This document shows positions 8,099 through 47,800 of a stretch of DNA of 64,000 nucleotides, piece after piece (the first letter of the stretch is position 1; the number at the start of each line of letters is the position of its first letter). The stretch is from an uncultured Desulfobacterales bacterium (GTDB lineage: Bacteria > Desulfobacterota > Desulfobacteria > Desulfobacterales > CAJINA01). Made by a program: the position numbers and the translations under genes. The notes beneath the pieces are model-generated. The model did no database searches and was not told the origin of the DNA. It saw nothing but the letters and a program-made list of their open reading frames with translations. The stretch is taken from positions 99,373 through 163,372 of the forward strand of contig CAZYGG010000001.1 in NCBI GenBank assembly GCA_964647585.1, written 5' to 3'.

Positions 8099-9322
8099 CT
8101 ATTTGACTATCCCAATCAGGTCCCACATGGGCAAAAAGATAGCCAGGGCAAAAAAACCGACAACCACCGCCAGCCCGACCGTGAGAAGGGGACCGATGGC
8201 GTCGGAGAGCTTCTTGGTCGCATACTCAACTTCCATATCGTAATGCTCGGATATCTCCATGAGCATTTCGTCAAGTTTTCCCGACTCCTCCCCGATAGAT
8301 ACCATGTTCACCACAATCGGGGTAAAAAAGGCGGCCTTTTCAAGCGGCGCCGCGATGCCCCGGCCCTCTTCTAGCTGTTCACCAATCTGCTGAAACTCCT
8401 TCGAGATGGCCGTATTGCCTACAGTGATCGCCAGAATACGCATGGCTTCGAGCACTGAAACCCCACTCGATTGCAAGATAGAAAAAATACTGGCAAAACG
8501 CGACATGGCCGCTTTGACGAACAGGTCTCCTAATATGGGCAGTCGCAGCAGGGTCTGGTCTCTCACATAGCGGCCTGTCTCTGTCCTTAAATAAAAATAG
8601 AGGCCGGTGCCGGCGACAAAGACAGCGCCTATCAGTAGATGCCAGTAATTGGCCAGAAACTGATAAAGAAAAAGACATATCTTCGTCGGTAGCGGCAGGT
8701 TCAATCCCGCGGACGTAAAAATAGTGACGAACTTGGGAATTACAAAAGTGAGCAGAACAACAAAAGCGATCGCGAGAAACACAACCACGATAATCGGGTA
8801 TTGCAGGGCCGCCTTTATATCCGCCTTGATTTTGTGCTCATGATCGATAATGTATGTCAATCGGTCGAGGACCGTTGGCAGGGCACCGCTCGCCTCGCCG
8901 GCCTGAACCATTCCACAATAGAGTGGCGAAAAAACACCCGGGTGTTTCTTGAAGGCGTCATACAGGCTGCTGCCCCCGCTGATGTCGTCCACCATCGTCC
9001 GCGTAACTCTTTTTATTTTCAGGTTCTCCGCCTGCTTTTCCAGAATCTGCAACATCTTCACCATGGGTACCCCGGCCCTGAGCATGGTTTTGAACTGCTT
9101 GGTAAAGATGATGAGTTCGGGCGCTTTGACCGGGGTGATGATCTCCTTAAACCGATTCAGGCTGAACCCGCCGACATCCCCGCCGCCCTTTTCATTTACC
9201 TGGGTAGGCAGGTAGCCCCGGGCTTCAAGGATAGAGGTAGCCATTTCCCGAGAATCCGCATCAATTTCCCCCGACACGGTGGCGCCGGTTTCATTGATCG
9301 ATTTGTATGCGTAGGTGACCAT
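8099..9322 (-). CDS. pilC: Type IV pilus / T2SS platform protein (PilC/MshG/GspF family)
   Basis: Duplicated T2SSF-type domains and three TM segments. The N-terminus YAYKSINETGATVSGEIDADSREMATSILEARGYLP is typical of PilC. I prefer ATG 9322, because the TTG at 9340 lies inside a repeat arm. Confidence 0.85.
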   Translation of the reverse strand: MVTYAYKSINETGATVSGEIDADSREMATSILEARGYLPTQVNEKGGGDVGGFSLNRFKEIITPVKAPELIIFTKQFKTMLRAGVPMVKMLQILEKQAENLKIKRVTRTMVDDISGGSSLYDAFKKHPGVFSPLYCGMVQAGEASGALPTVLDRLTYIIDHEHKIKADIKAALQYPIIVVVFLAIAFVVLLTFVIPKFVTIFTSAGLNLPLPTKICLFLYQFLANYWHLLIGAVFVAGTGLYFYLRTETGRYVRDQTLLRLPILGDLFVKAAMSRFASIFSILQSSGVSVLEAMRILAITVGNTAISKEFQQIGEQLEEGRGIAAPLEKAAFFTPIVVNMVSIGEESGKLDEMLMEISEHYDMEVEYATKKLSDAIGPLLTVGLAVVVGFFALAIFLPMWDLIGIVK

Positions 9323-9332
9323 AATTAAAAAA

Positions 9333-9459
9333 GGGTTCAAGGATTCGAGGGTTCAAGGGTTCAAGTTTTTTTCTCCAAGCTTTTAATTAGCGCCTTAAGC
9401 ATTTCTTTAAAAGATTCCAGCATTCACTTGAGCCCTCGGCCCCTTGACCCCTTGAATCC
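9333..9459. repeat. Word-repeat hairpin element, family A (GGGTTCAAGG/GGTTCGAGG words), two arms plus a ~60-nt core
   Basis: The left arm GGGTTCAAGGATTCGAGGGTTCAAGGGTTCAAG matches the reverse complement of the right arm CTTGAGCCCTCGGCCCCTTGACCCCTTGAATCC at 25 of 33 positions (hand alignment). It fills the pilB-pilC spacer. Confidence 0.8.
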
Positions 9460-9464
9460 TGCTT

Positions 9465-11168
9465 TTAAATCATTATCGCCGAGGCAGCTTCTTCAAAGGA
9501 AGTTTCGCCCCGATAAATTTTCTTGGCCGCATCTTCCCTCAGGGTTGTCAGCTTGCCCTTTGCAACCATGGCGCGCGTAATCTCCTGGGCCGTCCTTTTT
9601 TCGAGAACCATGTTCTGGACATCTTCATCAATCATCAGAATTTCATAGAGCCCGGTACGCCCCTTATAACCTTTGTCCATGCAGTAGAAACAACCGGTCC
9701 CCATGGAAAAATCCGCGGCGGCGTCATCTTGCAGCTGCCAGAATTCCAGGGCCGCCTCAGGTGGCTTGTGTGGCTTTTTACAATAGGGGCAAACCTTCCT
9801 GACCAGTCGCTGGGCGATGGAGGCCAGCATAACCGAGGAAACCAGGAAGGATTCAATGCCCATGTCCAGGAACCGGGTAATGGCACCGGCCGCGTCATTG
9901 GTATGCACCGTGCTGAGCACCCGGTGTCCGGTCAAGGCCGCCTGGACGCCGATGGTGGCGGTTTCACCGTCACGTATCTCACCGACCATAATGACGTCCG
10001 GGTCCTGCCGCAGCACAGCCCGCAGGCCGCTTGCGAAGGTCATGCCCGCTTTGCGATTAAATTGAATCTGCCTTACCTTCTCCATCCGGTATTCAACCGG
10101 ATCTTCAAAAGTGATGATATTGATATCCGGCTTGTTGATGATCTTCAAAAGCGAATAGATGGTGGTGCTTTTCCCGCTACCGGTTGGTCCGGTGCTCAGC
10201 ACCATCCCATACGGTTTGACGATCACCTCTTCAATTTTCTGCCGGTCCCTGGCGGCCATCCCCAGCTGCTCCAGGGAGTAGACGCCGCTGCTCGTATCCA
10301 GCAGACGGATAACCATGTTTTCACCATAAATGGTCGGCATTGTCGAGGTACGGATATTGATTTCCCGATTGTCCATTTTAATGGTGAATCTGCCGTCCTG
10401 GGGTATCTTGGAAAGCGCAATGTCCATGTTGGACAGGATTTTCAAGCGTGAAATGATCAGCAGGATCATCGATTTGGGCGGCGCCGGCACTTCGTGCAGC
10501 CGGCCGTCCACCCGGAAGCGAACCTGGACGTAATCCTTCTCGGGGCTGATGTGCACGTCACTGGCACCTTCCCGGACCGCCTGGGAGAGAATGGAGTTCA
10601 CCAGCCTGACGACCGGGGCTTCCTGGACCATATCCTGCAGGGAGCCGACTTCAACCTCATCGGAAAAGTCGGTTCTTTCAGGTTCATCATCCTTTTCAAT
10701 CTCCATTTCCTCGATAACACCACCGATACCTGAATAAGTCCCGTAAAGGCTGCCCACAAGGTGGTTAAGCTGTTGATCGGTACAGATCACCGCCTCAATT
10801 TCGGTATTCGTATACACCTCCAGGGCATCCAGGGCGGCTATATCCATGGGATCCACCATGGCAACCGTCAGCAAAAAACGGCTGCGCACCAGGGGGGCCA
10901 CCTGGTATTTTGTGGCCACGTCCACTGGAATTGTTTTGGACAGTTCCATATCAATCGGATACTTATCCGGGCGGTACTTTTCGATATGCAGCTGCACGGA
11001 AACCAGATCCGCGATCTGGTTGCCGCTCACATAGCCTTCCCGGACCAGGTATTGCCCCATTTTAAGCTTGGTTTTTTTATGCCCTTCTATGACTTCTTCA
11101 AGCTGGGCCGCGGTTAACAGGCCGCCCTCAACCAGCATTGCACCAAGTCGTTTTTTATCTCTCGCCAT
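9465..11168 (-). CDS. pilB: Type IV pilus extension ATPase (PilB/MshE/GspE family) with an N-terminal MshEN-type domain
   Basis: Walker A GPTGSGKST and tetracysteine CPYC...CFYC. The N-terminus carries RLGAMLVEGGLLTAAQLEEVIEGH and KMGQYLVREGYVSGNQIADLVSVQ. Confidence 0.9.
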   Translation of the reverse strand: MARDKKRLGAMLVEGGLLTAAQLEEVIEGHKKTKLKMGQYLVREGYVSGNQIADLVSVQLHIEKYRPDKYPIDMELSKTIPVDVATKYQVAPLVRSRFLLTVAMVDPMDIAALDALEVYTNTEIEAVICTDQQLNHLVGSLYGTYSGIGGVIEEMEIEKDDEPERTDFSDEVEVGSLQDMVQEAPVVRLVNSILSQAVREGASDVHISPEKDYVQVRFRVDGRLHEVPAPPKSMILLIISRLKILSNMDIALSKIPQDGRFTIKMDNREINIRTSTMPTIYGENMVIRLLDTSSGVYSLEQLGMAARDRQKIEEVIVKPYGMVLSTGPTGSGKSTTIYSLLKIINKPDINIITFEDPVEYRMEKVRQIQFNRKAGMTFASGLRAVLRQDPDVIMVGEIRDGETATIGVQAALTGHRVLSTVHTNDAAGAITRFLDMGIESFLVSSVMLASIAQRLVRKVCPYCKKPHKPPEAALEFWQLQDDAAADFSMGTGCFYCMDKGYKGRTGLYEILMIDEDVQNMVLEKRTAQEITRAMVAKGKLTTLREDAAKKIYRGETSFEEAASAIMI

Positions 11169-11183
11169 ATATCTGTCCAGTCT

Positions 11184-12887
11184 TCAACTGATACCCGGGC
11201 ACGGGTTAGCGTAAAACACCGCGTCCTTTTCCCATCCCGGAATAATATCACTTTTCAGCCGCACCTCCTCAGGCAGTTTGGCCAGGTACCGGGCGGCTTC
11301 GTCCTTTGACGAAAAGTACGTCCAAAATATGATATCAAAGCGCAACCCCTGAGCCGGATGCCAGTAAGGGATCATCCGCAGGGGCGCCGCCCTGGTCGAA
11401 TGCCGGCGGATCATGTCGAGTGCCTCCGAAACAGTTTCCACGCTGCCAACCCGGATCCATTCAAGATAATCCGGCACGTGCAGCCCTGCATGCGCCTGGG
11501 CCGGGAAGGCTATGGCCTGCCCCTTAAAAATATTGTTCAGGTCTTCCAGACCTGGGTTGCCGGCCACTATCGCCCGGCGTCCCCGGTGCGTGTATTCACC
11601 ATAGACCTTGATCATCACCCAGGAAAGGGTCTCATCAGCCTGCATCCTGATCATTCCCAGGGTTTGCGGCCGGGTCCGGACAGCCATGACCACCGGTTCA
11701 GCCGCTGCGACAACATCTACCGGCGGCAACTCAGCTGCGGGAACTTCCTTATTTACCGGGTCACGGGCGACCGCCGGCTCGCCTTCCGTCAACTTTGCAG
11801 CGGTTTCGATACCCGGCGGCGATCCTTCCGGTTTCTCACCCGGGGCACTGGCCGGGGTCGGTGCAAGGGGCGGCGCATGCGCTGCTACCGGGTAAGGCGC
11901 GGGGTTGTCCCCCACGCTTTTATTTTTTGCCGGCAACACCTCTTTGATTACCGGGTCACGCGTGACCTTTGCTTTCTCCGGCATGAAACCGGTATAGGCG
12001 ATCCCGGCCACACCGGCTACAACCATCAGGGCCCCGAAGGCTTTTTGCCATCCGCCGGACCGCTTGGCAGAGCCCCTGTTGACACATGAACTTACCAGAC
12101 GCCAGCCTGCTCTTTTCCTGTTTTTAACAATCATTGCCAGCATAATCCGGTGGCAAAGATTCACTATTTTACGGGGATATCCCTGCGTCGCCCGATAGAT
12201 GGCTGCCACCGCCGGGAAACTCAGCAGGCTGCCCAGACTGCCTTCCGCCCCCGCTTTTTGAAGGCGGTAATCAATCATAAGCCTGGTATCCCGGAATCCA
12301 AGGGGGCCCAACACGTGGAGCAGGTTTATTCTATCCGCGAAATTCGCGTGCTTTTCAAGGATCTGTTCAAACTCGCGCTGCGCAAAAATAACAATCTGCA
12401 GCAGCTTGAATTCGTTGGTTTCATAGTTGAGCAATTCCCGCAGTATTTCCAGGATCGGGGCCGGAATTTTCTGGCCTTCATCGATAATCAGGACCACAAC
12501 CCGGTTTTCTTCTACCCCCCTTTTATACAGGTACTGCTTGATGAACTCCTTGTAGTCGGCCCAGTCTCCGGTGGGAACTTTCGGCTCGCGCTCGAACATC
12601 CCGGCCACAACCTTTAAAAAAGCCGCCGGATCGGTCATGTGGGGGTCCAGGATCAGGTGGGTCTCAAACTCCTCATCCCGGCTGAATTTCTTGATCATCT
12701 GCCGGCACAACGTTGTCTTACCGGTGCCCACCTCCCCGATGACGACGTTCAGTCCCCGGCGCAGGCGCAAAGACAGTTCAAGTTTCTGCAGGCACTCCTT
12801 GTGCTGCCTTGATTTAAAAAAATAATCAGGATCCGGTGAATTGGAAAACGGTTCCCTTTCTAAGTTCAGAAGTTTGAAGTATTCCAT
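11184..12887 (-). CDS. ExeA/GspA/MshM-like AAA ATPase with a Pro-rich linker and C-terminal LysM-like and SPOR-like regions
   Basis: GEVGTGKTTLCRQM Walker A and VLIIDEGQ Walker B. A TM segment (ALMVVAGVAGIAY) is followed by a PAP-rich linker. Then ETLSWVMIKVYGEY...GNPGLEDLNNIFKGQAIAFP fits the LysM pattern. Confidence 0.75.
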   Translation of the reverse strand: MEYFKLLNLEREPFSNSPDPDYFFKSRQHKECLQKLELSLRLRRGLNVVIGEVGTGKTTLCRQMIKKFSRDEEFETHLILDPHMTDPAAFLKVVAGMFEREPKVPTGDWADYKEFIKQYLYKRGVEENRVVVLIIDEGQKIPAPILEILRELLNYETNEFKLLQIVIFAQREFEQILEKHANFADRINLLHVLGPLGFRDTRLMIDYRLQKAGAEGSLGSLLSFPAVAAIYRATQGYPRKIVNLCHRIMLAMIVKNRKRAGWRLVSSCVNRGSAKRSGGWQKAFGALMVVAGVAGIAYTGFMPEKAKVTRDPVIKEVLPAKNKSVGDNPAPYPVAAHAPPLAPTPASAPGEKPEGSPPGIETAAKLTEGEPAVARDPVNKEVPAAELPPVDVVAAAEPVVMAVRTRPQTLGMIRMQADETLSWVMIKVYGEYTHRGRRAIVAGNPGLEDLNNIFKGQAIAFPAQAHAGLHVPDYLEWIRVGSVETVSEALDMIRRHSTRAAPLRMIPYWHPAQGLRFDIIFWTYFSSKDEAARYLAKLPEEVRLKSDIIPGWEKDAVFYANPCPGIS

Positions 12888-12920
12888 TTCTCTACAAAGC
12901 CCTACCCGCGACGGCTGGGT

Positions 12921-14423
12921 CTACTCACCGGTTTTGGTATCGCTGTTACCTAATCTTTGCTTGAGGATATGCGGTGTGATAAAAATCAGAAGATCTTCCG
13001 CCTCCCGGCTCTTACCTTCTCCCCTGAAGAAAACACCCAATAAGGGGATATCTTGCAAGCCGGGGACGCCGCGATCCAGGCGTTCATCTTCAGATGTATT
13101 CAGTCCCCCGATTACCGTGGTTTGCCCATCAAAGAGGATCACGTTTGTTTCAGCTTCTTTCTTGATAATAGGGGGTTCTCCGCCGCTAATAATGGCTGCG
13201 CCGACTGAATTCTTTTTGACTTTTATATCCATCTTAATGGCTTCACCGTCAATCACGTGGGGGGTCACATTCAGTTCCAGAACAGCCTCTTTGAAACTGG
13301 TATTGGCGGTACCGGTATCAATGGCCGTGTAGGGAACCTCCTGGCCACTTTTGAATATGGCCGGCGTATTATCTGTTGTCGTAATTGAAGGGCTCGACAA
13401 TATCTTAATTTTATTCTCAGTCTGCAAGGCGTAAAGCTGCGCGTTGAGCTGATTTCCGCCGCCTTCTAACAGAAAACCAAGTGCCATACCACCGGCAGCC
13501 GCTATCGGGAAATCAAAGGCCGGGTTGGCACCGCCTGCAGATGTTTCTCCGATCGTAACGGTACTGCCGTCGTTAATCGTGGTCTGGTATTTCCCCCCCC
13601 ATTCAATTCCAAGTTGCCGGGCAGTCGAACTGGTGGCTTCCACAATATGGGCCTCAATAAGGATCTGGGGTGTAGGCTGGTCAAGCTCTTTGATCAGAGG
13701 CAGCATGTTTGTTATATCACTATTCAGGGCCTGTACGATGAGCGAGTTGGTATGGGTGTCAACCATAATGGAGCCGAGTGATTTACCGTCATTTCGCTTC
13801 GTTATAAACGCCTCCAGAGTCTTTTTAAGATCCTCGGCCCGGGTGTAGTCGATCCGGATAATACGGGTTGACAGCGGTTCCAGTTCGCGCATATCTTTTT
13901 TCTGGGCCGCCTTCTGCATCTCCTGCTCCACGTCCGCCGCGGTCATGATCCGGATAATATTGCCTTCCCACCGGTAGGAAAGCCCGTGGGTTTTCAACAC
14001 GCCCAGGAAAACCTGGTCCCAAGGCGCCCGCTGAATGTTGATGTTCGCCCGCCCGCCGACCTTTTCATTGATCATGATGTTCTGCCCGGCCGCCCGGGCC
14101 AGGTACCGCAGCAATACGGCCACGTTGACATCGCTCATGTTTAATGAGACCGGAGAATCAGGCAGTGGTTTTTCTGTTTTTTCCTCAGGGGCTGCCTCCG
14201 GCTCCCCAGCAACCGGGGCTGCGGACTCTCCACCACCCAGATGCCTTACTCTCCGTTTCATACTGGGAGAATATCCCTTGGAATTCTCAGCTTTTACCTT
14301 CCATTTATCGTACGATTCGTCGATTTTGTTTTTGTCGTCGCCGGTACAGCCCGCAACGATCAAAATGGCAAACAGACACGCGGCAAGCACCGAACATTGT
14401 TGAAATAAGGTGTGCTTCTTCAT
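12921..14423 (-). CDS. pilQ: Type IV pilus secretin (PilQ/MshL family), probable lipoprotein
   Basis: The C-terminal secretin signature is GVPGLQDIPLLGVFFRGEGKSREAEDLLIFITPHIL. The internal start MKKHTLFQQCSVLAACLFAILIVAGC gives a lipobox, so 14423 is preferred over 14507. Confidence 0.85.
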   Translation of the reverse strand: MKKHTLFQQCSVLAACLFAILIVAGCTGDDKNKIDESYDKWKVKAENSKGYSPSMKRRVRHLGGGESAAPVAGEPEAAPEEKTEKPLPDSPVSLNMSDVNVAVLLRYLARAAGQNIMINEKVGGRANINIQRAPWDQVFLGVLKTHGLSYRWEGNIIRIMTAADVEQEMQKAAQKKDMRELEPLSTRIIRIDYTRAEDLKKTLEAFITKRNDGKSLGSIMVDTHTNSLIVQALNSDITNMLPLIKELDQPTPQILIEAHIVEATSSTARQLGIEWGGKYQTTINDGSTVTIGETSAGGANPAFDFPIAAAGGMALGFLLEGGGNQLNAQLYALQTENKIKILSSPSITTTDNTPAIFKSGQEVPYTAIDTGTANTSFKEAVLELNVTPHVIDGEAIKMDIKVKKNSVGAAIISGGEPPIIKKEAETNVILFDGQTTVIGGLNTSEDERLDRGVPGLQDIPLLGVFFRGEGKSREAEDLLIFITPHILKQRLGNSDTKTGE

Positions 14424-14540
14424 TTTAATAGATCTCTTTTTCTGAATTGTCTGTAAGATGCAACCCCTCAATTTCCCTGAGAATTCTGAGTGAAATCCCT
14501 TTAGCATGCGCCCTTTTACCTATAGTTCCCAGGCGTTTAG

Positions 14541-14571
14541 GCCCGGCCCTCTTGAACCCTCGAACCCTTCA
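14541..14571. repeat. Family A word-repeat, single arm
   Basis: GCCCGGCCCTCTTGAACCCTCGAACCCTTCA lies in the pilP-like/pilQ spacer and uses the same words as 9427-9459 and 39159-39193. Confidence 0.7.
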
Positions 14572-14577
14572 TGGTCA

Positions 14578-15093
14578 CTACTTGGCCGTTTCATCAATGG
14601 GAACCACGATGACACTCTTATTCGCGTCCACGTAGATGTGGACCTCCCCCGCCGATATCTTCTTCAGGGCTGCTGTGCCTTGAGTGTCAAGCTGGTCCCC
14701 CTCCTGGTATTCCATACCGTTGATAATCGCCAGCTTGCTTTTTCCCATTTCCATATAACCCGAATAGTTAAAAGACCCGGTCAAATCTCCGCGGGCAATA
14801 ATCTCCGGCTCTTTTTCGGTCTCCGCGTCAGCTGCCCCGGATTTCTTGACGACCAGAAATGGGTCTTTCTTCCATTGAGCCGAAGATTTTTCCAGGATTT
14901 CCCTATCTTTCGCTGTGGTGTCAGCCCCCTGAATGCGCTTGATCAAACCGGCCACGAATTCGTTTACCTCAACCGACGGCTTTCCGGAAGACTTATTTTT
15001 ACCGCCCGTAGAGCCTGAAAAAAGAAAAGTGTAGCCCCCGTACAATATGGCCGCAACCATCAGACCGACGATTATTTTTTCCCGATTAGACAT
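14578..15093 (-). CDS. PilP/MshK/GspC-like small pilus assembly protein (N-terminal TM)
   Basis: 171 aa with N-terminal IIVGLMVAAILYGGYTFLF. The C-terminal beta-rich KLAIINGMEYQEGDQL...ISAGEVHIYV resembles the PilP/GspC HR domain. Its position directly upstream of the secretin fits. Confidence 0.55.
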   Translation of the reverse strand: MSNREKIIVGLMVAAILYGGYTFLFSGSTGGKNKSSGKPSVEVNEFVAGLIKRIQGADTTAKDREILEKSSAQWKKDPFLVVKKSGAADAETEKEPEIIARGDLTGSFNYSGYMEMGKSKLAIINGMEYQEGDQLDTQGTAALKKISAGEVHIYVDANKSVIVVPIDETAK

Positions 15094-15097
15094 TTAG

Positions 15098-15142
15098 CCT
15101 TTAACCCTTGAATCCTTGACCCCTCGGCCCCTTGAATCCTTC
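15098..15142. repeat. Family A word-repeat, single arm filling the pilO-like/pilP-like spacer
   Basis: CCTTTAACCCTTGAATCCTTGACCCCTCGGCCCCTTGAATCCTTC. Confidence 0.7.
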
Positions 15143-15665
15143 ATTTTAGTGCCACCCAGACACGCATTCGAAATTCCCGCCCATCCGGTATGGCCATAAT
15201 CCTTACTCTTTCAATGAACTCAACGTGGGGTACCGCAATAAGCTGATTTAAAAACGAACGGTAATCGGCCAGATTGCCCCGCAACACCATATCAACCTGC
15301 ATTAACCGGACTTCATTAACCATGGCATTGAGATCCAGGTTGATACCGGCCATTTGCATCCGGCTTCCGGTCGCGAGATGGGTCAACGCGTCCGCAACGC
15401 CACTGGCATCGTCGCGTGCCAGGGCAGTCCGCACCGTCAGGGCGGCAGTCGACTCGTTCAACTCTCTGCGTTTTTTTACCAACTGCCCAAAAACCGGTGC
15501 GAGCAGACGCTGTGCTTTGACCTGGGTTTCAATTTTCACCCGTCGGGCCTCGGCTTTGCCGATAGCCAAATAGCTGGGTACAACCAGCACCCCGATGACG
15601 ATTAGCAGGACGCTTGTGTAAATCGCGAGATTTCGCAAAGACCTTTTGGGTATGCTGGATATCAT
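15141..15665 (-). CDS. PilO/MshJ/GspM-like pilus assembly protein
   Basis: A single N-terminal TM (LAIYTSVLLIVIGVLVV), then a coiled-coil and a ferredoxin-like C-terminus. Operon position fits. ATG 15665 has AGGAAA upstream and is preferred over 15701. Confidence 0.55.
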   Translation of the reverse strand: MISSIPKRSLRNLAIYTSVLLIVIGVLVVPSYLAIGKAEARRVKIETQVKAQRLLAPVFGQLVKKRRELNESTAALTVRTALARDDASGVADALTHLATGSRMQMAGINLDLNAMVNEVRLMQVDMVLRGNLADYRSFLNQLIAVPHVEFIERVRIMAIPDGREFRMRVWVALK

Positions 15666-15721
15666 AAATACCGTTTCCTGGGTTAAATAGTGTCCATCCA
15701 TGAGTGTATATCATGGATGAA

Positions 15722-15794
15722 GGTGTTAGCTTTTAGCAATTAGGTATTAAAAAATACAGGTTAAATACAGCGCATTGCCTAACTGCTAACCGCC
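15722..15794. repeat. Word-repeat hairpin element, family H (TTAGC words)
   Basis: GGTGTTAGCTTTTAGCAATTAGGTATT faces GCATTGCCTAACTGCTAACCGCC in the pilMN/pilO-like spacer. Confidence 0.55.
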
Positions 15795-15840
15795 TATGGC
15801 CAATAGCTCCATCCTGAAATCTTTGATTTATGGATGGTCA

Positions 15841-17754
15841 CTAAATAATCGACATACTTAAAACAAACCGCAAGGCTTCGCCCTCTTCGGTCTCAAGGAT
15901 TATCTTTTCTTTAACCTTGGGTTGCTTGAAAAGCGAAGATTTCTTTAGTCTGACAAGATACTCCGTAACATTTTTTTCGAAAAAACGACTGTTGCCGGAA
16001 ATCAGGCCCTCCAGGTTCAGCACCTTTCCGGACCTTTCTATTGTCTGCGACGCGACCGATCCCAGGATCGCCTGGATGCGGGTCAGTTTCACATTATCGG
16101 GTGTAACGGCAATGAGCTCGGCAATAAGCGCCGCGGGCATATGATAGCTGGCGGCGGCGGCATAAGCTTTCATTTTCAGAACGGTCTGACCGGTGACACT
16201 CGCCATAAGGTTACGATCCAGTCTCGGACTGTAGGCCTCAAGTTCCATTTCCAGGGGATTTGTTTTGGCCCTGATCGCACTTACCTTTTCAGTTTGATAG
16301 TAAAAAATACCCATAGCCATACAGAGCAGCCCGATAAACACGACATTGGCAACCAGGTTGAATCTTTTGGCAAAAACCTTTCTGGCTTTATGCACGTAAG
16401 TGAAAATGAAGTTGGGGGTGGTCTCATTTTCAGACAGGGCCATACCGGCCGCCGGAACGAAAATGTCTCCGGTCAACGCAGATTCACCGGTTGCATCAAT
16501 GGCGCTTGATTCCGGCAGGTTGGCGAATGGGTCCATGGACTCAACCTGCAGCCCCAATTGTTTGCCGATATAGCTGATAATACTTTTTTTGGAGCTCAAT
16601 TCCCCGGAAATATAGACATTATCGATAGGATTGTCGTCAAAATTAAGGCCAAAATGCTCAAGGGTCATCTCCACTTGCCGGATCACTCGATCCAGGGCCG
16701 GCTTGACCATTCCGAATACCAGTCTCTCTCTTTTCAGGTCAGGCAACGCACCCTCGACGGGCGGCCTTGTTTCAAGAAACGCTGCAAACAGTTTTTCCGC
16801 TCTTTTCAGATTGGGGCTGTTCTCAACCGTTTCCAGCAGAATCTCTGGTTCAGGTACGTCCAGGGTCAGGGTATCCTCGGACGAGTTGCTTTTGTTATCA
16901 AGGGTTTCCAGGATTGCCTGAACCATGCTCCGGGCTCCGGCCTTTATATCCCTCGACAGAATGAGCACATTTTTTGAAAATATGGCGATGCGCGACCAGT
17001 CCCGGCCAATAAAAAGCATGCACACGTTTTTCCCGGCGCTTTCGATCCATCCGGCCCTGAGCAGGTTTTGAATAGCGAACGGAACTATCGAAATCCCCTT
17101 GAGGGGCCAGCCGGCCTTGCTGAAAAGCTCCTCGGCTGCATTGATTTCACTCTTGGGGGCGGTATAGGCGACCACATTCGTCTTCTGCTCGCCGTCCGCA
17201 TAGGCGGTGTCAATTACCTGGAAGTCGAAGATCTGTGAATCGTCAATGGAGGTTTCTTTCTGGTAGGCCCATCTGACCGCATTGGGTATCTGCCTGACCG
17301 GCACTTTGGGTATCTGCAGAAATCTTGTTTCGACATCCGCGGAAGGGATGGTCGCCCACAGGGAGGGGGCCTTATATTTCCCGGTCAGTTCTTTTACCGA
17401 CCTTTTAAGCAGTTTGACAAACTCGACACTGCCCTTTTGCATGCCCGCTTCTAGGCCGATGCGCCTGATCTCAAGAAGTTTCTGTTCTTTTTCAGACAAC
17501 CGGTTCACGACCGCCAGGGTAATGTCGCTTTCGTTGATGTCTACGCCGACTTTTATGACCTTCTTTGAACGGCGCATAGCCGTTGTTTTGGCTTTGCGCT
17601 TGAACAGTTTCTTGCGGGCCGGTTGCCCCCCGTCTTTCCCTTTTGAGCCGGCACCCTTGTTTCTGATCAATTCGAGAAGTTTTTCAGTAGAGGTTATATC
17701 GTCTTTTTTAGCCAATTCTGCTCTCCAGAGGGCTCTGGTGCCGGTTGTTGACAC
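15841..17754 (-). CDS. Fused PilM-PilN type (MshI/GspL-like) pilus assembly protein
   Basis: The actin-like PilM signature IKVGVDINESDITLAVV is followed by TM FNLVANVVFIGLLCMAMGIFYY and a PilN-like periplasmic part. The GTG start at 17754 has no clear SD. An internal start (M60, nt 17577) is possible. Confidence 0.7.
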   Translation of the reverse strand: MSTTGTRALWRAELAKKDDITSTEKLLELIRNKGAGSKGKDGGQPARKKLFKRKAKTTAMRRSKKVIKVGVDINESDITLAVVNRLSEKEQKLLEIRRIGLEAGMQKGSVEFVKLLKRSVKELTGKYKAPSLWATIPSADVETRFLQIPKVPVRQIPNAVRWAYQKETSIDDSQIFDFQVIDTAYADGEQKTNVVAYTAPKSEINAAEELFSKAGWPLKGISIVPFAIQNLLRAGWIESAGKNVCMLFIGRDWSRIAIFSKNVLILSRDIKAGARSMVQAILETLDNKSNSSEDTLTLDVPEPEILLETVENSPNLKRAEKLFAAFLETRPPVEGALPDLKRERLVFGMVKPALDRVIRQVEMTLEHFGLNFDDNPIDNVYISGELSSKKSIISYIGKQLGLQVESMDPFANLPESSAIDATGESALTGDIFVPAAGMALSENETTPNFIFTYVHKARKVFAKRFNLVANVVFIGLLCMAMGIFYYQTEKVSAIRAKTNPLEMELEAYSPRLDRNLMASVTGQTVLKMKAYAAAASYHMPAALIAELIAVTPDNVKLTRIQAILGSVASQTIERSGKVLNLEGLISGNSRFFEKNVTEYLVRLKKSSLFKQPKVKEKIILETEEGEALRFVLSMSII

Positions 17755-21807: not shown

Positions 21808-21990
21808 GGTGTTCAGGTCGAAGGCTGAAGACTGAAGGAAAACCTCACGTGCCCTACCAAGGGCCTGTGAAACTTTTGTAAAAAATCCCGGGCAAGAGGG
21901 TGGCGTAAACCTATGGTACCCCGATTCAAGACGCAAAGCCTTACCGCTTTTAAGCTTTTACTTCAGACTTCAGTCTTCAACCTTAACCCC
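21808..21990. repeat. Word-repeat hairpin element, family C (CTGAAGA/CTGAAGG words)
   Basis: GGTGTTCAGGTCGAAGGCTGAAGACTGAAGG faces CTTCAGACTTCAGTCTTCAACCTTAACCCC with a ~110-nt core between them. Confidence 0.75.
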
Positions 21991-22519: not shown

Positions 22520-22605
22520 GCGTTAGTTTCGAGCTAAACCCCTGCCTTAGGTGGAGGACCTGGCGAGGTTCTCGACCAATCCTGGGAAAAAAGACCAGAA
22601 GATCA

Positions 22606-22732
22606 AATATCCAACAAGGAATGTCCAATGTCCAAGTAAGGAAGCGCTGCGCGCTACTGGTTTTGAACTTTTCAAAACAGCAGGATACCTTACTTGAAAA
22701 TTGGACATTGGGCATTGGAAATTGGATATTCG
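22606..22732. repeat. Word-repeat hairpin element, family B (ATCCAACA/ATGTCCAA words) with nested inner stems
   Basis: AATATCCAACAAGGAATGTCCAATGTCCAAGTAAGG faces CCTTACTTGAAAATTGGACATTGGGCATTGGAAATTGGATATTCG. The core holds GTTTTGAA-ctt-TTCAAAAC. It lies between convergent genes. Confidence 0.8.
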
Positions 22733-23787: not shown

Positions 23788-23906
23788 CTAAAGTGAACTA
23801 AAGTTTGAAGTGAACTAAAGTTAAGGAATCCTGCCAGTTTGATTCAATCAGTGGAGCGCAGCGACGCATTAACTTTAGTCACTTTAGATCACTTTAGTCA
23901 CTTCAC
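23788..23906. repeat. Word-repeat hairpin element, family D (CTAAAGTGAA words)
   Basis: CTAAAGTGAACTAAAGTTTGAAGTGAACTAAAGTTAA faces TTAACTTTAGTCACTTTAGATCACTTTAGTCACTTCAC. Confidence 0.8.
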
Positions 23907-23974
23907 TCTCATCGGTTATGAGTTGTAAGCCCTTCCAGGGACAACTCAAAGCCTGGCCCTCTATGCCTGATTCT

Positions 23975-24664
23975 TTACTTCTTTATCAATACCATACTTC
24001 TTTGCTCATTCAAAACCGGCAGCCGGTAGGTCACCATACGGATAGTATCCCTTCCGAAAAAACCGTCACCTTTTTCAGCCAGCCGGCGGCACTCCTGCTC
24101 GGCCCGGGCAACACGCCCCTTAAGCGCCACAACCGTCCCGCCAGCTTTGAGCAGGGGAAACGCCAGTTCAATGATCTGATCAATCCCGGTCAGCGCCCGG
24201 CATATGATCCGATCAAAAAACTCGCCATAACCCGCCTGTTCTTTCAGTTCCTGGGCGCGGATATGCCTGGCAGCCACGTTATTAAGCCCCATCAATCGCA
24301 GGGCATGCTGTAAAAAACTTATCTTTTTGCCGACACTGTCAATCATCAGCATGCTTTTCGGTTGCGCGGCGACCGCGACCGGGACTCCCGGGAATCCTCC
24401 GCCGGTGCCTATATCCAGGATGTCCGCACCGGCGGGCAGGTAAGGTACGCAAGCCAGGGAATCCACATAGTGCTTGATGGCCATCTCAACCGGATCACTT
24501 ATCCGGGTAAGGTTTATCTTTTTATTCCACTTTATAAGCTCGTTCGCATGGGAGGCCAGGTTTTCAAGCTGGGAACCGGTTATTTCAATTCCCAATTCCC
24601 CGGCACCCCTGGCAATCAATTGCCCCCATTGCCCCGCCCCCTGAACGTTATGATGAGCAGCCAC
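23975..24664 (-). CDS. rsmG: 16S rRNA (guanine527-N7)-methyltransferase
   Basis: LIKWNKKINLTRI and ILDIGTGGGFPGVPVAV are typical of GidB/RsmG. Confidence 0.85.
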   Translation of the reverse strand: MAAHHNVQGAGQWGQLIARGAGELGIEITGSQLENLASHANELIKWNKKINLTRISDPVEMAIKHYVDSLACVPYLPAGADILDIGTGGGFPGVPVAVAAQPKSMLMIDSVGKKISFLQHALRLMGLNNVAARHIRAQELKEQAGYGEFFDRIICRALTGIDQIIELAFPLLKAGGTVVALKGRVARAEQECRRLAEKGDGFFGRDTIRMVTYRLPVLNEQRSMVLIKK

Positions 24665-24813: not shown

Positions 24814-24866
24814 ATTTGAATTTTGAATTTGTTTCGAACTTCGTGCTTTGTATTTTGGATTTAGTT
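24814..24866. repeat. Family G repeat copy (TTGAATTT/TTCGAA words)
   Basis: TTTGAATTTTGAATTTGTTTCGAACTTCGTGCTTTGTATTTTGGATTT is near-identical to the reverse complement of 47745-47795. Confidence 0.7.
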
Positions 24867-31985: not shown

Positions 31986-32013
31986 TTTCACTTCAAACTT
32001 TAATTCACTTTAG
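31986..32013. repeat. Family D word-repeat, single arm
   Basis: TTTCACTTCAAACTTTAATTCACTTTAG matches the reverse complement of 23788-23824 at 26 of 28 positions (hand alignment). Confidence 0.7.
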
Positions 32014-33675: not shown

Positions 33676-33720
33676 TTAGGACTCGTAAATATCAATAATT
33701 ATAGTTACACTGCCTCATTA

Positions 33721-33905
33721 GGATTCAAGGGTTCAAGGGTTCGAGGGTTCGAGGGGCCAAGTGAAATGCTGAAAGGCTTTTAAAAGCATATCTCAAAGGG
33801 ATGCGCATGGCCGACAATAAAACCTAATAATAATTAAAGCTTGTCCCCTTGACTACCCAGCATGGCCTCTGGCGAAAACAAGACCCTTCGAATTCTGGAA
33901 CCCTT
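33721..33905. repeat. Family A element with the same core as 9333-9459 and a degenerate right arm
   Basis: Left arm GGATTCAAGGGTTCAAGGGTTCGAGGGTTCGAGGGGC. The core AATGCTGAAAGGCTTTTAAAAGCA...TAATTAAAGCTTG parallels the reverse complement of 9366-9424. Confidence 0.7.
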
Positions 33906-34865: not shown

Positions 34866-36226
34866 TGGCCTCTGACGTCAGAAAAGAGGCCCTGGCCATT
34901 CTTTCTGAGCTGGAAAAAGAGCGCCCTCTCACCCTTGACCGCATGCTGGATACCTATCGCACTGCCGACCCGGGTCAGCTCCGCCGTGACAAAGCCTTTC
35001 TGCAGGCCCTCGTCTTCGGCATACTGCGCACGCGCAATCGCCTCGATTGGACTATCCGCCATTTTTCTAAAACCCCTTTCCGAAAAATATCTCCCGATGT
35101 GAAAAACATCCTGCGCCTGGGGGTTTACCAGATTCTGTACATGGATCGGGTACCGGATTCTGCGGCGGTCAACACCGCGGTCGAACTGGCCAAAAAGGTG
35201 GCCGCACCCTGGACGGTTAAATTTGTAAATGGCCTCCTGCGCAACATTGCCCGCCACCCGGACGCCGTGACGTTCCCGGATATGGCCAAAAACGTAGTCC
35301 ACGCGCTCTCCGTACGCAAATCCCTGCCGGAGTGGCTCGTGCAGCGGTGGCTGACCAGATTCGGCCAGGACCAGTGTGTACAATTGTGCGACGCGGTGAA
35401 CACGATCCCGCCGCTCAGCCTGCGCACGAACACCCTGAAAACCTCCCGCACGTCGCTGGTGAACACCCTTGACAATGTTGTGGACGCAACCGTCCGGACT
35501 TCCCACACCCCGGAGGGAATTTTACTGTATGGTCTGCATACCGACCTGCAAGCTCTCCCGGGATATGCAGAGGGAAAATTCCAGGTCCAGGACGAGGCCG
35601 CCCAGTTGGTCGCCCACATCCTGGCACCCCGTCCCGGCCTGCGGGTCCTGGATGCCTGTGCCGGTCTGGGCGGCAAAACAGGCCATATCGCCCAACTCCT
35701 TGATAATAAGGGTGAAATTTTTGCCCTGGAGTCGGTTGAGAGTAAACTTGCGGCCCTGGAAAAGGAGATGCGCCGGCTGGGCATTTCCATTGTCACGCCC
35801 GCCCGGCATGATCTGACAAAACCACCGGATCCCGCGGTGTTCGGCACCTTTGACCGGATCCTCCTGGACGCGCCCTGCTCCGGGTTGGGGGTCTTGCGCC
35901 GCAACCCGGATACAAGATGGCACCGCACTACGGCCGACCTTGCGCGTTATGCCGGACGGCAGCAGACGTTCCTGAATCACCTGGCCCCCCTTGTGAAACC
36001 GGGCGGTATTCTGGTATATGCAGTCTGCAGTATGGAACCAGAGGAGAATGAAGCGGTCATACAATCGTTTCTCGCCCGGAATCGATTGTTTGAACCGATC
36101 GCGGTTCCAACGGACTCTATCAGTGACCCGACATCGGTGGTGGCATCTGACAATTGTTTACGGACCCTGCCGCACCGACACAACATGGACGGCTTTTTCG
36201 CGGTGTGCCTCAGGCGTCGGAAGTAA
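34865..36226 (+). CDS. rsmB: 16S rRNA (cytosine967-C5)-methyltransferase
   Basis: NusB-like N-terminus, DACAGLGGKT, DAPCSGLGVLRRNPD, YAVCS. TGATG overlap with the fmt stop. Confidence 0.9.
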   Translation: MASDVRKEALAILSELEKERPLTLDRMLDTYRTADPGQLRRDKAFLQALVFGILRTRNRLDWTIRHFSKTPFRKISPDVKNILRLGVYQILYMDRVPDSAAVNTAVELAKKVAAPWTVKFVNGLLRNIARHPDAVTFPDMAKNVVHALSVRKSLPEWLVQRWLTRFGQDQCVQLCDAVNTIPPLSLRTNTLKTSRTSLVNTLDNVVDATVRTSHTPEGILLYGLHTDLQALPGYAEGKFQVQDEAAQLVAHILAPRPGLRVLDACAGLGGKTGHIAQLLDNKGEIFALESVESKLAALEKEMRRLGISIVTPARHDLTKPPDPAVFGTFDRILLDAPCSGLGVLRRNPDTRWHRTTADLARYAGRQQTFLNHLAPLVKPGGILVYAVCSMEPEENEAVIQSFLARNRLFEPIAVPTDSISDPTSVVASDNCLRTLPHRHNMDGFFAVCLRRRK

Positions 36227-36311
36227 AGATCCTGGCATAGAGGGCCAGGCTTTGGGTTGCCCCTGGAAGGGGCTTGGTTCTTACACCAGCAAGTTGAAAG
36301 TGCCAAAAAAA

Positions 36312-36491
36312 ACGAACATCCAACATTCAACATCGAACGTCCAACATCGAAAAAGGACTGAAGCTTTGCTTCGCTGATTTATAGACCCTACAGGGCTTTA
36401 TAACCACTTGAGACGATTCGTGTTTAACTGGTCGCCGAAGGCGTACCTCAATTCAATGTTCAATGTTGAGTGTTCGATGATGAATGTTCAG
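36312..36491. repeat. Word-repeat hairpin element, family B-like (CATCCAACAT/CATCGAAC words)
   Basis: ACGAACATCCAACATTCAACATCGAACGTCCAACATCGAA faces AATTCAATGTTCAATGTTGAGTGTTCGATGATGAATGTTCAG. Confidence 0.8.
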
Positions 36492-37577: not shown

Positions 37578-37658
37578 GACTGTAGGCATTTAGGCTATAG
37601 GGAAAAACATACCGCCGTTGACTGTGAAACCTAATAGTCTTCAGCCTACAGCCTAAAC
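37578..37658. repeat. Word-repeat hairpin element, family E (CTGTAGGC/TTTAGGC words)
   Basis: GACTGTAGGCATTTAGGCTATAGGG faces CCTAATAGTCTTCAGCCTACAGCCTAAAC. Confidence 0.75.
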
Positions 37659-38982: not shown

Positions 38983-39222
38983 ATATCCAACAAGGAATGT
39001 CCAAATGAAACCAGGATCCAAGGGGTCAAGGGGCCGAGGGTTCTAGTGAGCCCCTGCGGGGCTGAAACCTAAGACCACTGGATGCCGGATCAAAGTCCGG
39101 CATGACGGTCTCTTTATTCCAAATAACAGAATAACTCACTTGGATTGGGATTGATTTTCCCTCGAACCCTCGAACCCTTGACCCCTTGAACCCTTGCTTT
39201 GTTGGATATTGGATATTCGATC
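38983..39222. repeat. Composite nested element: family B outer arms, family A inner arms and a conserved GTCATGCCGGA hairpin in the core
   Basis: Outer arms at 38983-39007 and 39197-39222. Inner arms at 39014-39043 and 39159-39193. Core hairpin CTGGATGCCGGATCAAAGTCCGGCATGAC at 39078-39106. Confidence 0.8.
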
Positions 39223-39224
39223 TT

Positions 39225-41418: not shown

Positions 41419-41451
41419 CCCAATAATCTCCGGTATGTATATACTCCAACA

Positions 41452-41546
41452 GTTTTAAGTTTTAGGTGTTAGGTGTTAGGTGTTAAGAAAAACATAAAAT
41501 ATCGTTAGAACAACCACTTAAAACTTAACACCCAACACTTAAAACA
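41452..41546. repeat. Word-repeat hairpin element, family F (GGTGTTA x3 / AGTTTTA words)
   Basis: GTTTTAAGTTTTAGGTGTTAGGTGTTAGGTGTTAAG faces CTTAAAACTTAACACCCAACACTTAAAACAC. Confidence 0.8.
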
Positions 41547-42775: not shown

Positions 42776-42786
42776 GGGTAAAGCCT

Positions 42787-43013
42787 GTTTTAAGTTTTAT
42801 GTGTTAAGTGTTAAGAGAACAAAAATCCGAAATCCGAATATCGAATTCCTAAACAAATTATAAATCCAAATGCCTCAATGACCTAAACAAACCCCTTACC
42901 GACAAACCAAAATAACAGATTGTTTGTCCCTTTTGAATTTCTGCCATTCGATATTGTTTGCGGCGTTTGCCTTGAGAACATTCCGAATTTCAAAATTCGG
43001 GCTTCGGATTTTC
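42787..43013. repeat. Compound repeat: family F half-arm plus family G arms
   Basis: GTTTTAAGTTTTATGTGTTAAGTGTTAAG comes first. Then AAAATCCGAAATCCGAATATCGAATTCC faces CATTCCGAATTTCAAAATTCGGGCTTCGGATTTTCC. Confidence 0.75.
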
Positions 43014-44316: not shown

Positions 44317-44377
44317 GGTCGCTTCCTTTTATCTCTTCACCCTGCTCTTAAACTTAGCCCGATTCTTGGTTTTTACC

Positions 44378-44533
44378 GTCCTGCCGGACCCCGATCCGGC
44401 ATCCAGCCTTATTGAGATTGCTATCGGGATCCGTATTCGATTTCTATCCTGACTCTATGACTGGGGAAAGGCCCGGCACACTATTACTACAGTAAAACAA
44501 GCCCCTGGATCCCGGCCTACGCCGGGATGACAA
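44378..44533. repeat. Inverted pair of GTCnTGCCGGA...TCCGGCATCCAG-type hairpin units
   Basis: GTCCTGCCGGACCCCGATCCGGCATCCAGCC (44378-44408) faces CCCCTGGATCCCGGCCTACGCCGGGATGACAA (44502-44533). Confidence 0.7.
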
Positions 44534-47726: not shown

Positions 47727-47800
47727 TTTGCAAGAATCTGACACCGAATAAAAAATTCGAATATCGAAGCACGAATATCGAAACAAATTCGAAATCTTGC
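47727..47800. repeat. Family G repeat copy (TTCGAATAT words)
   Basis: CCGAATAAAAAATTCGAATATCGAAGCACGAATATCGAAACAAATTCGAAATC. Its reverse complement parallels 24814-24866. Confidence 0.7.

Follow-up and report, generated by a model that had tools for sequence, protein, structure and literature searches.

Hairpin repeats in the spacers of a Desulfobacterales pilus operon look like tolerated mobile elements

Introduction

A type IV pilus operon lies on the minus strand of a 64-kb stretch of DNA from an uncultured Desulfobacterales bacterium (assembly GCA_964647585.1, contig CAZYGG010000001.1, positions 99,373 to 163,372; the whole stretch is hereafter called the window), and repeat elements sit in four of the six intergenic gaps between its genes. 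The locus raises the question of whether such repeats were built into the operon to set the amounts of pilus subunits, as a preliminary description of the sequence had proposed, or whether they settled there as passengers. We consider it probable that the four spacers hold the debris of selfish, non-autonomous hairpin elements that colonise intercistronic DNA throughout the genome, and on sequence comparison the inserts look like tolerated parasites rather than built-in dosage control because they are absent from close relatives, or different ones sit there at other places. What is new here is that two elements of known kinds, an intervening-sequence element linked to the S23p gene (23S_rRNA_IVP/four-helix-bundle, PF05635) and an element resembling MITEs (miniature transposable elements with inverted repeats), are both in mRNA spacers.

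Results

Two kinds of repeat in four operon spacers

The preliminary description had placed a repeat of family A or H at each of four consecutive gene junctions and had given the pilQ/exeA-like and exeA-like/pilB gaps as only 33 and 15 nt. Our spacer map bears out the positions of the repeats, which exceed chance by a wide margin and show no difference between four assemblies, as well as the two short gaps, both free of repeats, but the occupied junctions do not form one run: three consecutive junctions carry inserts, two are clean, and the pilB/pilC junction is occupied again (Table 1). Nor do all four hold elements of one kind: family H, at the pilM/pilO junction, differs in kind from the family A present at the other three. 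At each of the four occupied junctions the insert starts 0–8 nt past the upstream stop codon.

Family A is built from an octamer, RAGGGKYC, with about 4 units per arm. Searching the window with the pattern TCRAGGGKYCRAGGGKYCRAGG, with up to 2 mismatches allowed, returned 17 overlapping matches that correspond to 7 arms at 5 loci (0 expected from 100 shuffles), and Tandem Repeats Finder reported an 8-nt period with 3.6–5.5 copies. The spacers were 100% identical across four independent Logan assemblies, with zero polymorphism among them, and Logan contigs ended inside the repeats, from which we conclude that the sequence is real and that the repeats are multi-copy in the genome. Hairpins with arms of ~3–5 tandem 7–8-nt units, each family with its own unit, occupy roughly 16 of the 50 spacers in the window, and 16 of the 17 short-period arrays fall in its non-coding 13%; the pilus operon is not significantly enriched relative to the other junctions (4 of 6 versus 12 of 44, Fisher p=0.074). 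An Rfam scan of the window at the gathering score matched a tRNA only, with no rRNA, and over 9200–15900 it matched nothing even at E<=1, while a terminator and promoter scan called no intrinsic terminator at any of the four repeat-bearing spacers and found terminator-like sites to be rarer than in shuffles.

The pilB/pilC hairpin and its S23p remnant

As judged by alignment, the pilB/pilC hairpin is shown to be an internally deleted copy of a gene-carrying S23p element in which both arms were kept. Folding of the sense strand gives this spacer a ~33-bp stem around a 61-nt loop (-48.5 kcal/mol, z -3.6), and the loop encodes a 20-aa peptide (MLESFKE followed by MLKALIKSLEKKT and a stop) that corresponds to both ends of S23p joined by an in-frame internal deletion. 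At the DNA level the element matches both ends of intact S23p elements and lacks ~320 nt of the open reading frame (ORF); 0 of 2000 shuffles equalled the match of the mini-ORF DNA to intact S23p, and the stretch MLKALIKSLE in the mini-ORF shares 10 of 10 residues with the C-terminus of the intact S23p in contig L144. Among 2305 window ORFs (>=15 aa) the mini-ORF is the best match to the S23p hidden Markov model (HMM; E=0.013), and the second-best match is the loop at 33765–33824 of another family A element (at 33720).

Behind the 3' arm stands a T-run, which is found in S23p-bearing copies elsewhere as well and is for that reason best read as part of the element or its target rather than as an operon-specific terminator. 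We considered an intrinsic terminator at this junction and rejected it: a U6 tract is present, but it follows a stem and a loop of the sizes given above, where a terminator would have a short GC-rich stem and a loop of 3–8 nt, and none was called. The pilC gene has no Shine-Dalgarno sequence (upstream context UUUUUUAAUU-AUG). In insert-free relatives the pilB stop and the pilC start are 0–36 nt apart, often without a Shine-Dalgarno sequence, which suggests an ancestral translational coupling that the 142-nt hairpin now interrupts, and on these grounds pilC may still need either the stem to juxtapose stop and start or an AU-rich leader.

The other two family A inserts lack the pair of inverted arms and the long stem of the pilB/pilC copy, and are probably remnants, namely single arms of the 5' type. 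The arm between the pilO-like and pilP-like genes overlaps the TGA stop (15143–15141) and ends 4 nt before the pilP-like AUG (15093), and the sense RNA of the arm at 14541–14571, GGGUUCGAGGGUUCAAGAGGGCCGGG, matches the G-quadruplex motif (G3N1-7, four times). Three family A arms (14541–14571, 15098–15142 and 9427–9460) share one orientation and stand on either side of the pilP-like gene and of the pilQ-exeA-pilB block; being direct repeats, they could permit the loss of these genes by recombination.

Describing the repeats as structured, as had been done, holds for the two-armed elements at pilB/pilC and in family H (z -4.9), the only ones with significant stable folds on the sense strand, and fails for the two solo arms, whose spacers fold no better than shuffles (z -1.3 for pilO/pilP; z +0.3 for pilP/pilQ, against z +0.4 for the clean pilQ/exeA spacer). 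Sense and antisense RNAs fold about equally well, without strand asymmetry, so that there is no sign of stems tuned for mRNA. When the 39 two-armed family A elements among the matches listed were compared, an element's own arms ranked at a median of 19 of 39 against the arms of other elements; because own arms pair no better than foreign arms, complementarity reflects the family consensus rather than copy-specific selection, and no compensatory evolution is evident.

Intact family A elements and the S23p gene

A metagenome scan with the family A pattern found at least 120 contigs, and in many of those listed a complementary arm follows 6–390 nt downstream. Copies with long loops have a ~120-aa ORF between the arms, which matches PF05635 (23S_rRNA_IVP) in L153 (E=6e-39), L049 (E=1e-33) and L043 (E=3e-23); S23p also stands beside family A-type arms in L144, L096 and L053, and fragments of it do so in L016 and L018. 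In the intact element S23p has its ribosome-binding site within the last 5'-arm unit and its stop codon in the 3' arm. The protein is distantly related to the nucleic-acid-binding Avd (weak PF22296 matches), and the S23p HMM found nothing on 27 viral contigs that carry the family A pattern.

As far as the sequences go, the link between S23p and tandem arms also holds in cyanobacterial and Bacteroidota plasmids. A tblastn search of S23p against plasmids gave mostly Nostocales, plus Riemerella, and among 12 plasmid genes annotated as four-helix-bundle or "S23 ribosomal protein", 8 are clearly bordered to left and right by inverted tandem 7–8-nt arrays, in 2 the arrays are partial or direct, and 2 have none. 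The gene is oriented with its neighbours in 11 of 11 metagenome cases and in 10 of 12 plasmid cases, the latter of which rule out strict co-orientation. Two plasmids, L187 from Pseudanabaena and L190 from Anabaena sp. 90, carry a four-helix-bundle gene between cas6 and cas4, flanked in L187 by long AAAAGCT / AAAAGCC arrays that are direct, not inverted; both match the puzzle of 23S_rRNA_IVP genes known within cas operons (PMC3936711). Elsewhere, 22 kb of a metagenome-assembled genome (MAG) of Dialister sp. (Negativicutes; L034) hold 23 tandem heptamer/nonamer arrays of about 4.6 copies each (AGTGAGG, CACTCCT, GAGAAACCT and others), so the phenomenon reaches Firmicutes-type genomes, and on the reverse strand of the metagenome contig L137 (about 12298–12757) family A-like C-rich and G-rich octamer arrays surround ~380 nt that resemble tRNA genes on the opposite strand. 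The searched literature contained no description of a link between the S23p gene and short tandem repeats, and nothing useful was found there on Desulfobacter repeats and the cyanobacterial STRR repeats.

The inserts come and go among relatives

The window's PilB shares 94% identity with the protein of the Olavius algarvensis Delta 4 endosymbiont MAG (L006, the nearest relative) and 65–87% with those of other Desulfobacterales, and the order pilM-O-P-Q-exeA-pilB-pilC-sigma54 activator is kept in 25 loci. Across these syntenic operons each junction ranges from 0 nt or overlap to hundreds of nt, up to 517. The pilM/O, pilO/P and pilP/Q spacers of the nearest relative are short and repeat-free, and between its pilB and pilC stands a hairpin built from another family of units (CTTCAGT); in L005 the pilB/pilC gap measures 0 nt. 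At least 7 unit families occupy this one junction, each different (in the window, L006, L013, L015, L016, L018 and L028), and the hairpins of these seven genomes start 1–5 nt past the pilB stop: the junction is an insertion hot spot. In L016 its spacer (11711–12227) contains an intact four-helix-bundle gene (11752–12129, TIGR02436 E=7e-26) between (GAACATC)n heptamer arms, and the exeA/pilB spacer of the same genome (9679–9994) contains family A arms with a C-terminal fragment of S23p. On this comparison the inserts are shown to be non-conserved and mobile.

A further insert, of 354 nt with GGGTTC-type arms, lies in the pilO/pilP spacer of L012 (5771–6124) and has a 69-aa ORF (MRIARFENIEAWQL...) with no Pfam or NCBIfam match, whose likeness to a deleted four-helix-bundle gene was seen by eye and is unproven.

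Family H

The insert at pilM/pilO looks like a MITE-like element separate from family A, to judge by its ends and its second copy. Its terminal inverted repeats, GTGTCCATCC and GGATGGTCAC, are present at 15690 and 15828–15841, its sense strand folds into three hairpins (-46 kcal/mol), and the pilM-like stop TAG (15843–15841) lies inside its end. A copy of 82% identity is found at L005:5722–5880, there inverted and in the pilO/pilP spacer, that is, at another junction and in the other orientation, and in both copies the stop codon of the upstream gene falls at the element end. TA flanks the element on both sides in the window and in L005, although with two copies and a 2-nt repeat this is weak evidence for target-site duplication. 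The end motif also occurs in L030, where the pilC/sigma54-activator spacer (12921–13253) holds a tandemly duplicated G-rich element of ~166 nt whose ends, TGTCCGTCCAT...ATGGATGGGCA, resemble the terminal repeat of family H.

The longest ORF of the pilO-like gene starts (ATG 15701) within the terminal repeat of family H (15690–15701); ATG 15665, the start of the Logan/public gene call (174 aa), is more likely to be the true start.

Discussion

Probable debris of mobile elements, and rival readings

We picture family A as the stem of an intervening-sequence-type element whose arms, in intact copies, enclose an Avd-like S23p gene, most of which the pilB/pilC copy has lost by deletion. The inserts would be co-transcribed with the operon, and two-armed elements would fold in the mRNA into stems of ~33 bp that, if rRNA intervening sequences are a guide, could plausibly serve as RNase III substrates or as barriers to 3'-exonucleases. 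RNase III excises rRNA intervening sequences and cleaves double-stranded RNA that spans some two helical turns. Side effects on how the mRNA is processed, or on its stability, are plausible, but any effect on the PilB:PilC or PilM:PilO ratio would be a tolerated by-product, not a conserved regulatory design, and the solo arms probably have no effect beyond, at most, a weak Shine-Dalgarno-like one. Several points speak against this picture. No consistent target-site duplication and no definable transposition mechanism were found for family A, and the 64-kb window contains no intact S23p with family A arms, which leaves activity in this genome unproven. The E-value of the mini-ORF is by itself modest, Pfam finds nothing on the 20-aa loop peptides, and family H is known from 2–3 copies. 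Moreover, of the 204 arrays in the loci sampled, 127 have no partner, so that solo arrays may constitute a separate form; each of the four populations sampled has the inserts fixed, and these may truly affect stoichiometry, in a way that selection might even favour now in this lineage.

That fixation would also suit the view that the repeats were retained for mRNA structures that determine segmental stability, attenuation or translation, and through these the ratios of pilus subunits, as would the two very stable intercistronic stems, a pilB/pilC stem that is followed by U6 and stands directly before a pilC start without a Shine-Dalgarno sequence, and a stem base that brings together the pilB stop and pilC start, whose spacing in relatives suggests coupling; comparable repeats in Xanthomonas are, moreover, the sites of more transcript starts and stops than controls (PMC4692102). 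We nevertheless hold it to be unlikely: even the relative with 94% PilB identity does not share the junction inserts, one junction is taken by different families from genome to genome, the operon shows no significant enrichment over the rest of the window, two of the four inserts are unstructured, neither strand asymmetry nor arm covariation appears, and the T-run belongs to the element family. The proposal that the repeats are "positioned to set" subunit stoichiometry had named a comparison with relatives among its tests, and that comparison, with operon spacers of 0–517 nt and a nearest relative that is repeat-free at three of four junctions, went against it; given non-conservation and genome-wide spread, with the pilB/pilC copy itself decayed and no strand preference, a designed stoichiometry role is not supported. 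Slightly less likely again is a role at the DNA level, in which the units would be iterated sites for a nucleoid-associated protein, a global regulator or S23p itself. Regular periodicity and a unit number near 4 in each arm, found for many unit sequences that are not related, fit such a role, as do the kinship of S23p with Avd and the precedent of Geobacter, where similar sites were interpreted as binding IHF/HU or a global regulator and where insertion sequences (IS elements) insert at a fixed distance (PMC2700814), but no binding protein is known, units that differ among families of one genome would call for many regulators, and a place right behind intra-operon stop codons is odd for transcription-factor sites.

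The solo arms invite a reading of their own, as Shine-Dalgarno-like arrays (AAGGGG, GAGGG) or G-quadruplexes that tune downstream initiation. Both are G-rich on the sense strand, one ends just upstream of the pilP-like AUG and the other fits the quadruplex motif, the last 5'-arm unit serves as the ribosome-binding site of S23p in intact elements, and TAACTGA (PMC4679880) and GGGAATC/GGGGAYT (PMC4692102) repeats offer precedents. Yet an orientation shared by two arms out of two carries no significance, no more than three tracts of at least three G occur in the pilO/pilP arm, relatives manage without these arrays, and the Xanthomonas repeats show no strand preference (PMC4692102), which makes this account quite improbable to us. 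That the arrays arose in situ by replication slippage, as local microsatellites without mobile or genic origin, is barely credible and is largely refuted by the shared non-repetitive loop sequence: although the units are short and tandem and copy number differs between arms, unlinked loci and unrelated metagenomes have the same arm and the same beginning and end of the loop, the loops contain remnants of the S23p gene, and copy number stays tightly about 4 with no polymorphism among the four samples. Debris of mobile hairpin elements remains the reading we favour.

Wider meaning

If so, the long and structured-looking spacers of this operon are recent lineage-specific insertions; such spacers are not necessarily regulatory design, and annotation and operon models should treat them accordingly. 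Short 7–8-nt intergenic repeats have been described repeatedly without an origin, in Nostoc, Xanthomonas, Geobacter and Beggiatoaceae, and the present data link one such family directly to the S23p gene, familiar otherwise as part of rRNA intervening sequences and as an unexplained guest in cas operons. A broader idea, which we put forward tentatively and regard as doubtful, is that S23p genes flanked by inverted arrays of about four 7–8-nt units form one selfish class across phyla, which invades 23S helices and, far oftener, sites behind stop codons in operons, with the cyanobacterial STRR/heptamer repeats, Xanthomonas GGGAATC repeats, Geobacter paired sites and pil-operon repeats as its ORF-less derivatives. 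Were this true, RNase III would cut the stems and fragment polycistronic mRNAs, and S23p might bind its own arms; if the S23p link holds, such repeats gain a testable origin, and there would be a reason why four-helix-bundle genes appear in unrelated operons.

Gene map and other repeats in the window

The genes of the operon, with a sigma-54 activator gene downstream of pilC, are listed with their spacers and repeats in Table 1. Further intergenic hairpins and solo arrays of tandem 7–9-nt units, each with its own unit, stand elsewhere in the window, with units that include CTGAAGA, AATGTCC, ACTTTAGTC, AACATCC, AGTGTTA and AAATCCG; none were seen at 1–9 kb or 48–64 kb (a lower-GC, tightly packed gene cluster). 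Between convergent genes at 38983–39224 three palindromes are nested, a heptamer hairpin (38983–39004/39202–39221) enclosing a family A hairpin (39008–39049/39158–39199) that in turn encloses a GCCGGAT-type palindrome (39078–39109), the last recurring inverted at 44375–44406; the nesting points to insertion of elements into loops of hairpins already in place. Another repeat family is a 52-nt sequence present in inverse orientation at 23930–23981 and 36220–36271, 12 kb apart and 90% complementary, both copies of which sit at 3' ends of genes.

Table 1. Genes, spacers and repeats of the window (positions in the 64-kb stretch)
Feature	Position	Strand	Remarks
PilM with weak PilN fusion	15841-17754	-	
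pilO-like gene	15141-15701	-	186/174 aa; named by position, no significant Pfam match
pilP-like gene	14578-15093	-	171 aa; named by position, no significant Pfam match
Secretin (pilQ)	12921-14507	-	
AAA_22/ExeA-like gene	11184-12887	-	
PilB	9465-11168	-	Stop TAA 9467-9465
PilC	8099-9322	-	ATG at 9322
pilM/pilO spacer	15702-15840		139 nt (175 nt with the later Logan-call start); family H
pilO/pilP spacer	15094-15140		47 nt; octamer array essentially throughout
pilP/pilQ spacer	14508-14577		70 nt; 3 octamer units at 14541-14571
pilQ/exeA spacer	12888-12920		33 nt; no repeat
exeA/pilB spacer	11169-11183		15 nt; no repeat
pilB/pilC spacer	9323-9464		142 nt; two octamer arms, 9331-9365 and 9427-9460
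Family H composite, ~150 nt	15688-15842	.	Ends GTGTCCATCC...GGATGGTCAC, TA flanks
Family H small terminal hairpins	15693-15719 and 15808-15838		
Family H central hairpin	15722-15794		Heptamer-like arms
Solo family A arm, pilO-like/pilP-like	15098-15142	-	5.5 units, sense strand G-rich; fills spacer
Solo family A arm, pilP-like/pilQ	14541-14571	-	3 units, sense strand G-rich; starts 6 nt past stop
5' G-rich arm, pilB/pilC family A hairpin	9427-9460	-	About 4 units RAGGGKYC; starts 4 nt past pilB stop
Loop mini-ORF (MLESFKEMLKALIKSLEKKT, then stop)	9361-9423	-	Stop codon inside first unit of 3' arm
3' C-rich arm, pilB/pilC family A hairpin	9331-9365	-	4.4 octamer units
Tail UUUUUUAA	9323-9330	-	Between 3' arm and pilC AUG (9322)
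Other hairpins/arrays	21808-21988, 22598-22731, 23788-23906, 36315-36490, 37578-37658		7-9-nt units
Further hairpins/arrays	41451-41545, 42786-43012, 47754-47795		7-9-nt units
Further solo arms	24815-24862 and 31987-32013		

Comparison with known systems

The preliminary description had likened the repeats to the repetitive extragenic palindromes (REPs) and bacterial interspersed mosaic elements (BIMEs) of enterobacterial operons. REPs measure 20–40 bp, carry GTAG/CGTC at their head and owe their mobility to RAYT transposases. The likeness stands as regards multi-copy palindromes inside a co-directional operon, their position and their possible side effects, but not as regards a designed role in stoichiometry; in form, too, family A differs, being no imperfect palindrome of 20–40 bp with a GTAG or CGTC head but a pair of 31–35-nt tandem arrays ending AGG...CCT around loops of 60–400 nt with gene remnants. 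There is no RAYT evidence from the 64 kb covered, where part of the ORFs were scanned. REP/BIME elements are multi-copy extragenic palindromes in operons that can protect upstream mRNA (PMC3733652).

Family H recalls the Correia/NEMIS elements of Neisseria in its length of about 150 nt, terminal inverted repeats, TA flanks, foldability and place between co-transcribed genes. Those elements are MITEs with a TA target duplication, and RNase III processing is known for Correia. There is no sequence similarity between the two, 2–3 copies of family H were seen, and such processing is known for Correia only.

Among short tandem repeats, the solo arm just upstream of the pilP-like start is like the TAACTGA arrays of Beggiatoaceae, cyanobacteria and Bacteroidetes, which comprise 2–6 tandem heptamers a few nt before start codons (MacGregor 2015, PMC4679880) and which differ in their unit, in being mostly unpaired, in having had a translational regulator proposed for them and in having no reported S23p link (PMC4679880). 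Geobacter metallireducens has three classes of sites (1–3) with 3–5 tandem 7–9-nt units in dozens of copies, arranged as opposite-strand pairs at variable distance and lying in intergenic DNA, including inside operons (proB/proA; Aklujkar et al. 2009, PMC2700814); the tandem units, inverted pairs, copy number and intra-operon places are shared with our elements, unlike the unit sequences, and no four-helix-bundle link was reported there. The cyanobacterial STRR repeats, likewise solo tandem heptamer arrays, are grouped here with the TAACTGA type.

Similar, too, are the GGGAATC repeats of Xanthomonas and the GGGGAYT repeats of Nostoc/Anabaena, with about 4 G-rich, quadruplex-forming tandem units, about 90% of them intergenic and mostly between co-directional ORFs (e.g. 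pecE/pecF), abutting or overlapping the upstream stop codon and including 70–75 convergent pairs per Xanthomonas genome (Rehm et al. 2015, PMC4692102). Family A shares the G-rich units (3–5.5 per arm), the intergenic and stop-abutting position and the occurrence as inverted pairs and solo arms; its unit has 8 nt rather than 7, only some of its arms fit the quadruplex motif, and its loops hold S23p genes or their remnants, whereas the earlier repeats had been treated as quadruplex-forming simple repeats of unknown origin (PMC4692102).

The 23S intervening sequence of Coxiella burnetii has an S23p ORF in its loop and tandem heptamers in its 5' stem, with an RNase III site at the first repeat, and has been described as selfish (Warrier et al. 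2016, PMC4990558). Such intervening sequences lie in helix 45 of the 23S rRNA and are excised by RNase III, unlike our elements, which lie in mRNA intercistronic spacers and not in a 23S rRNA helix, have at pilB/pilC lost their ORF, and are only predicted to be cleaved; what the two have in common is a long stem formed by the ends, tandem units, S23p or what is left of it in the loop and a place within a host transcript.

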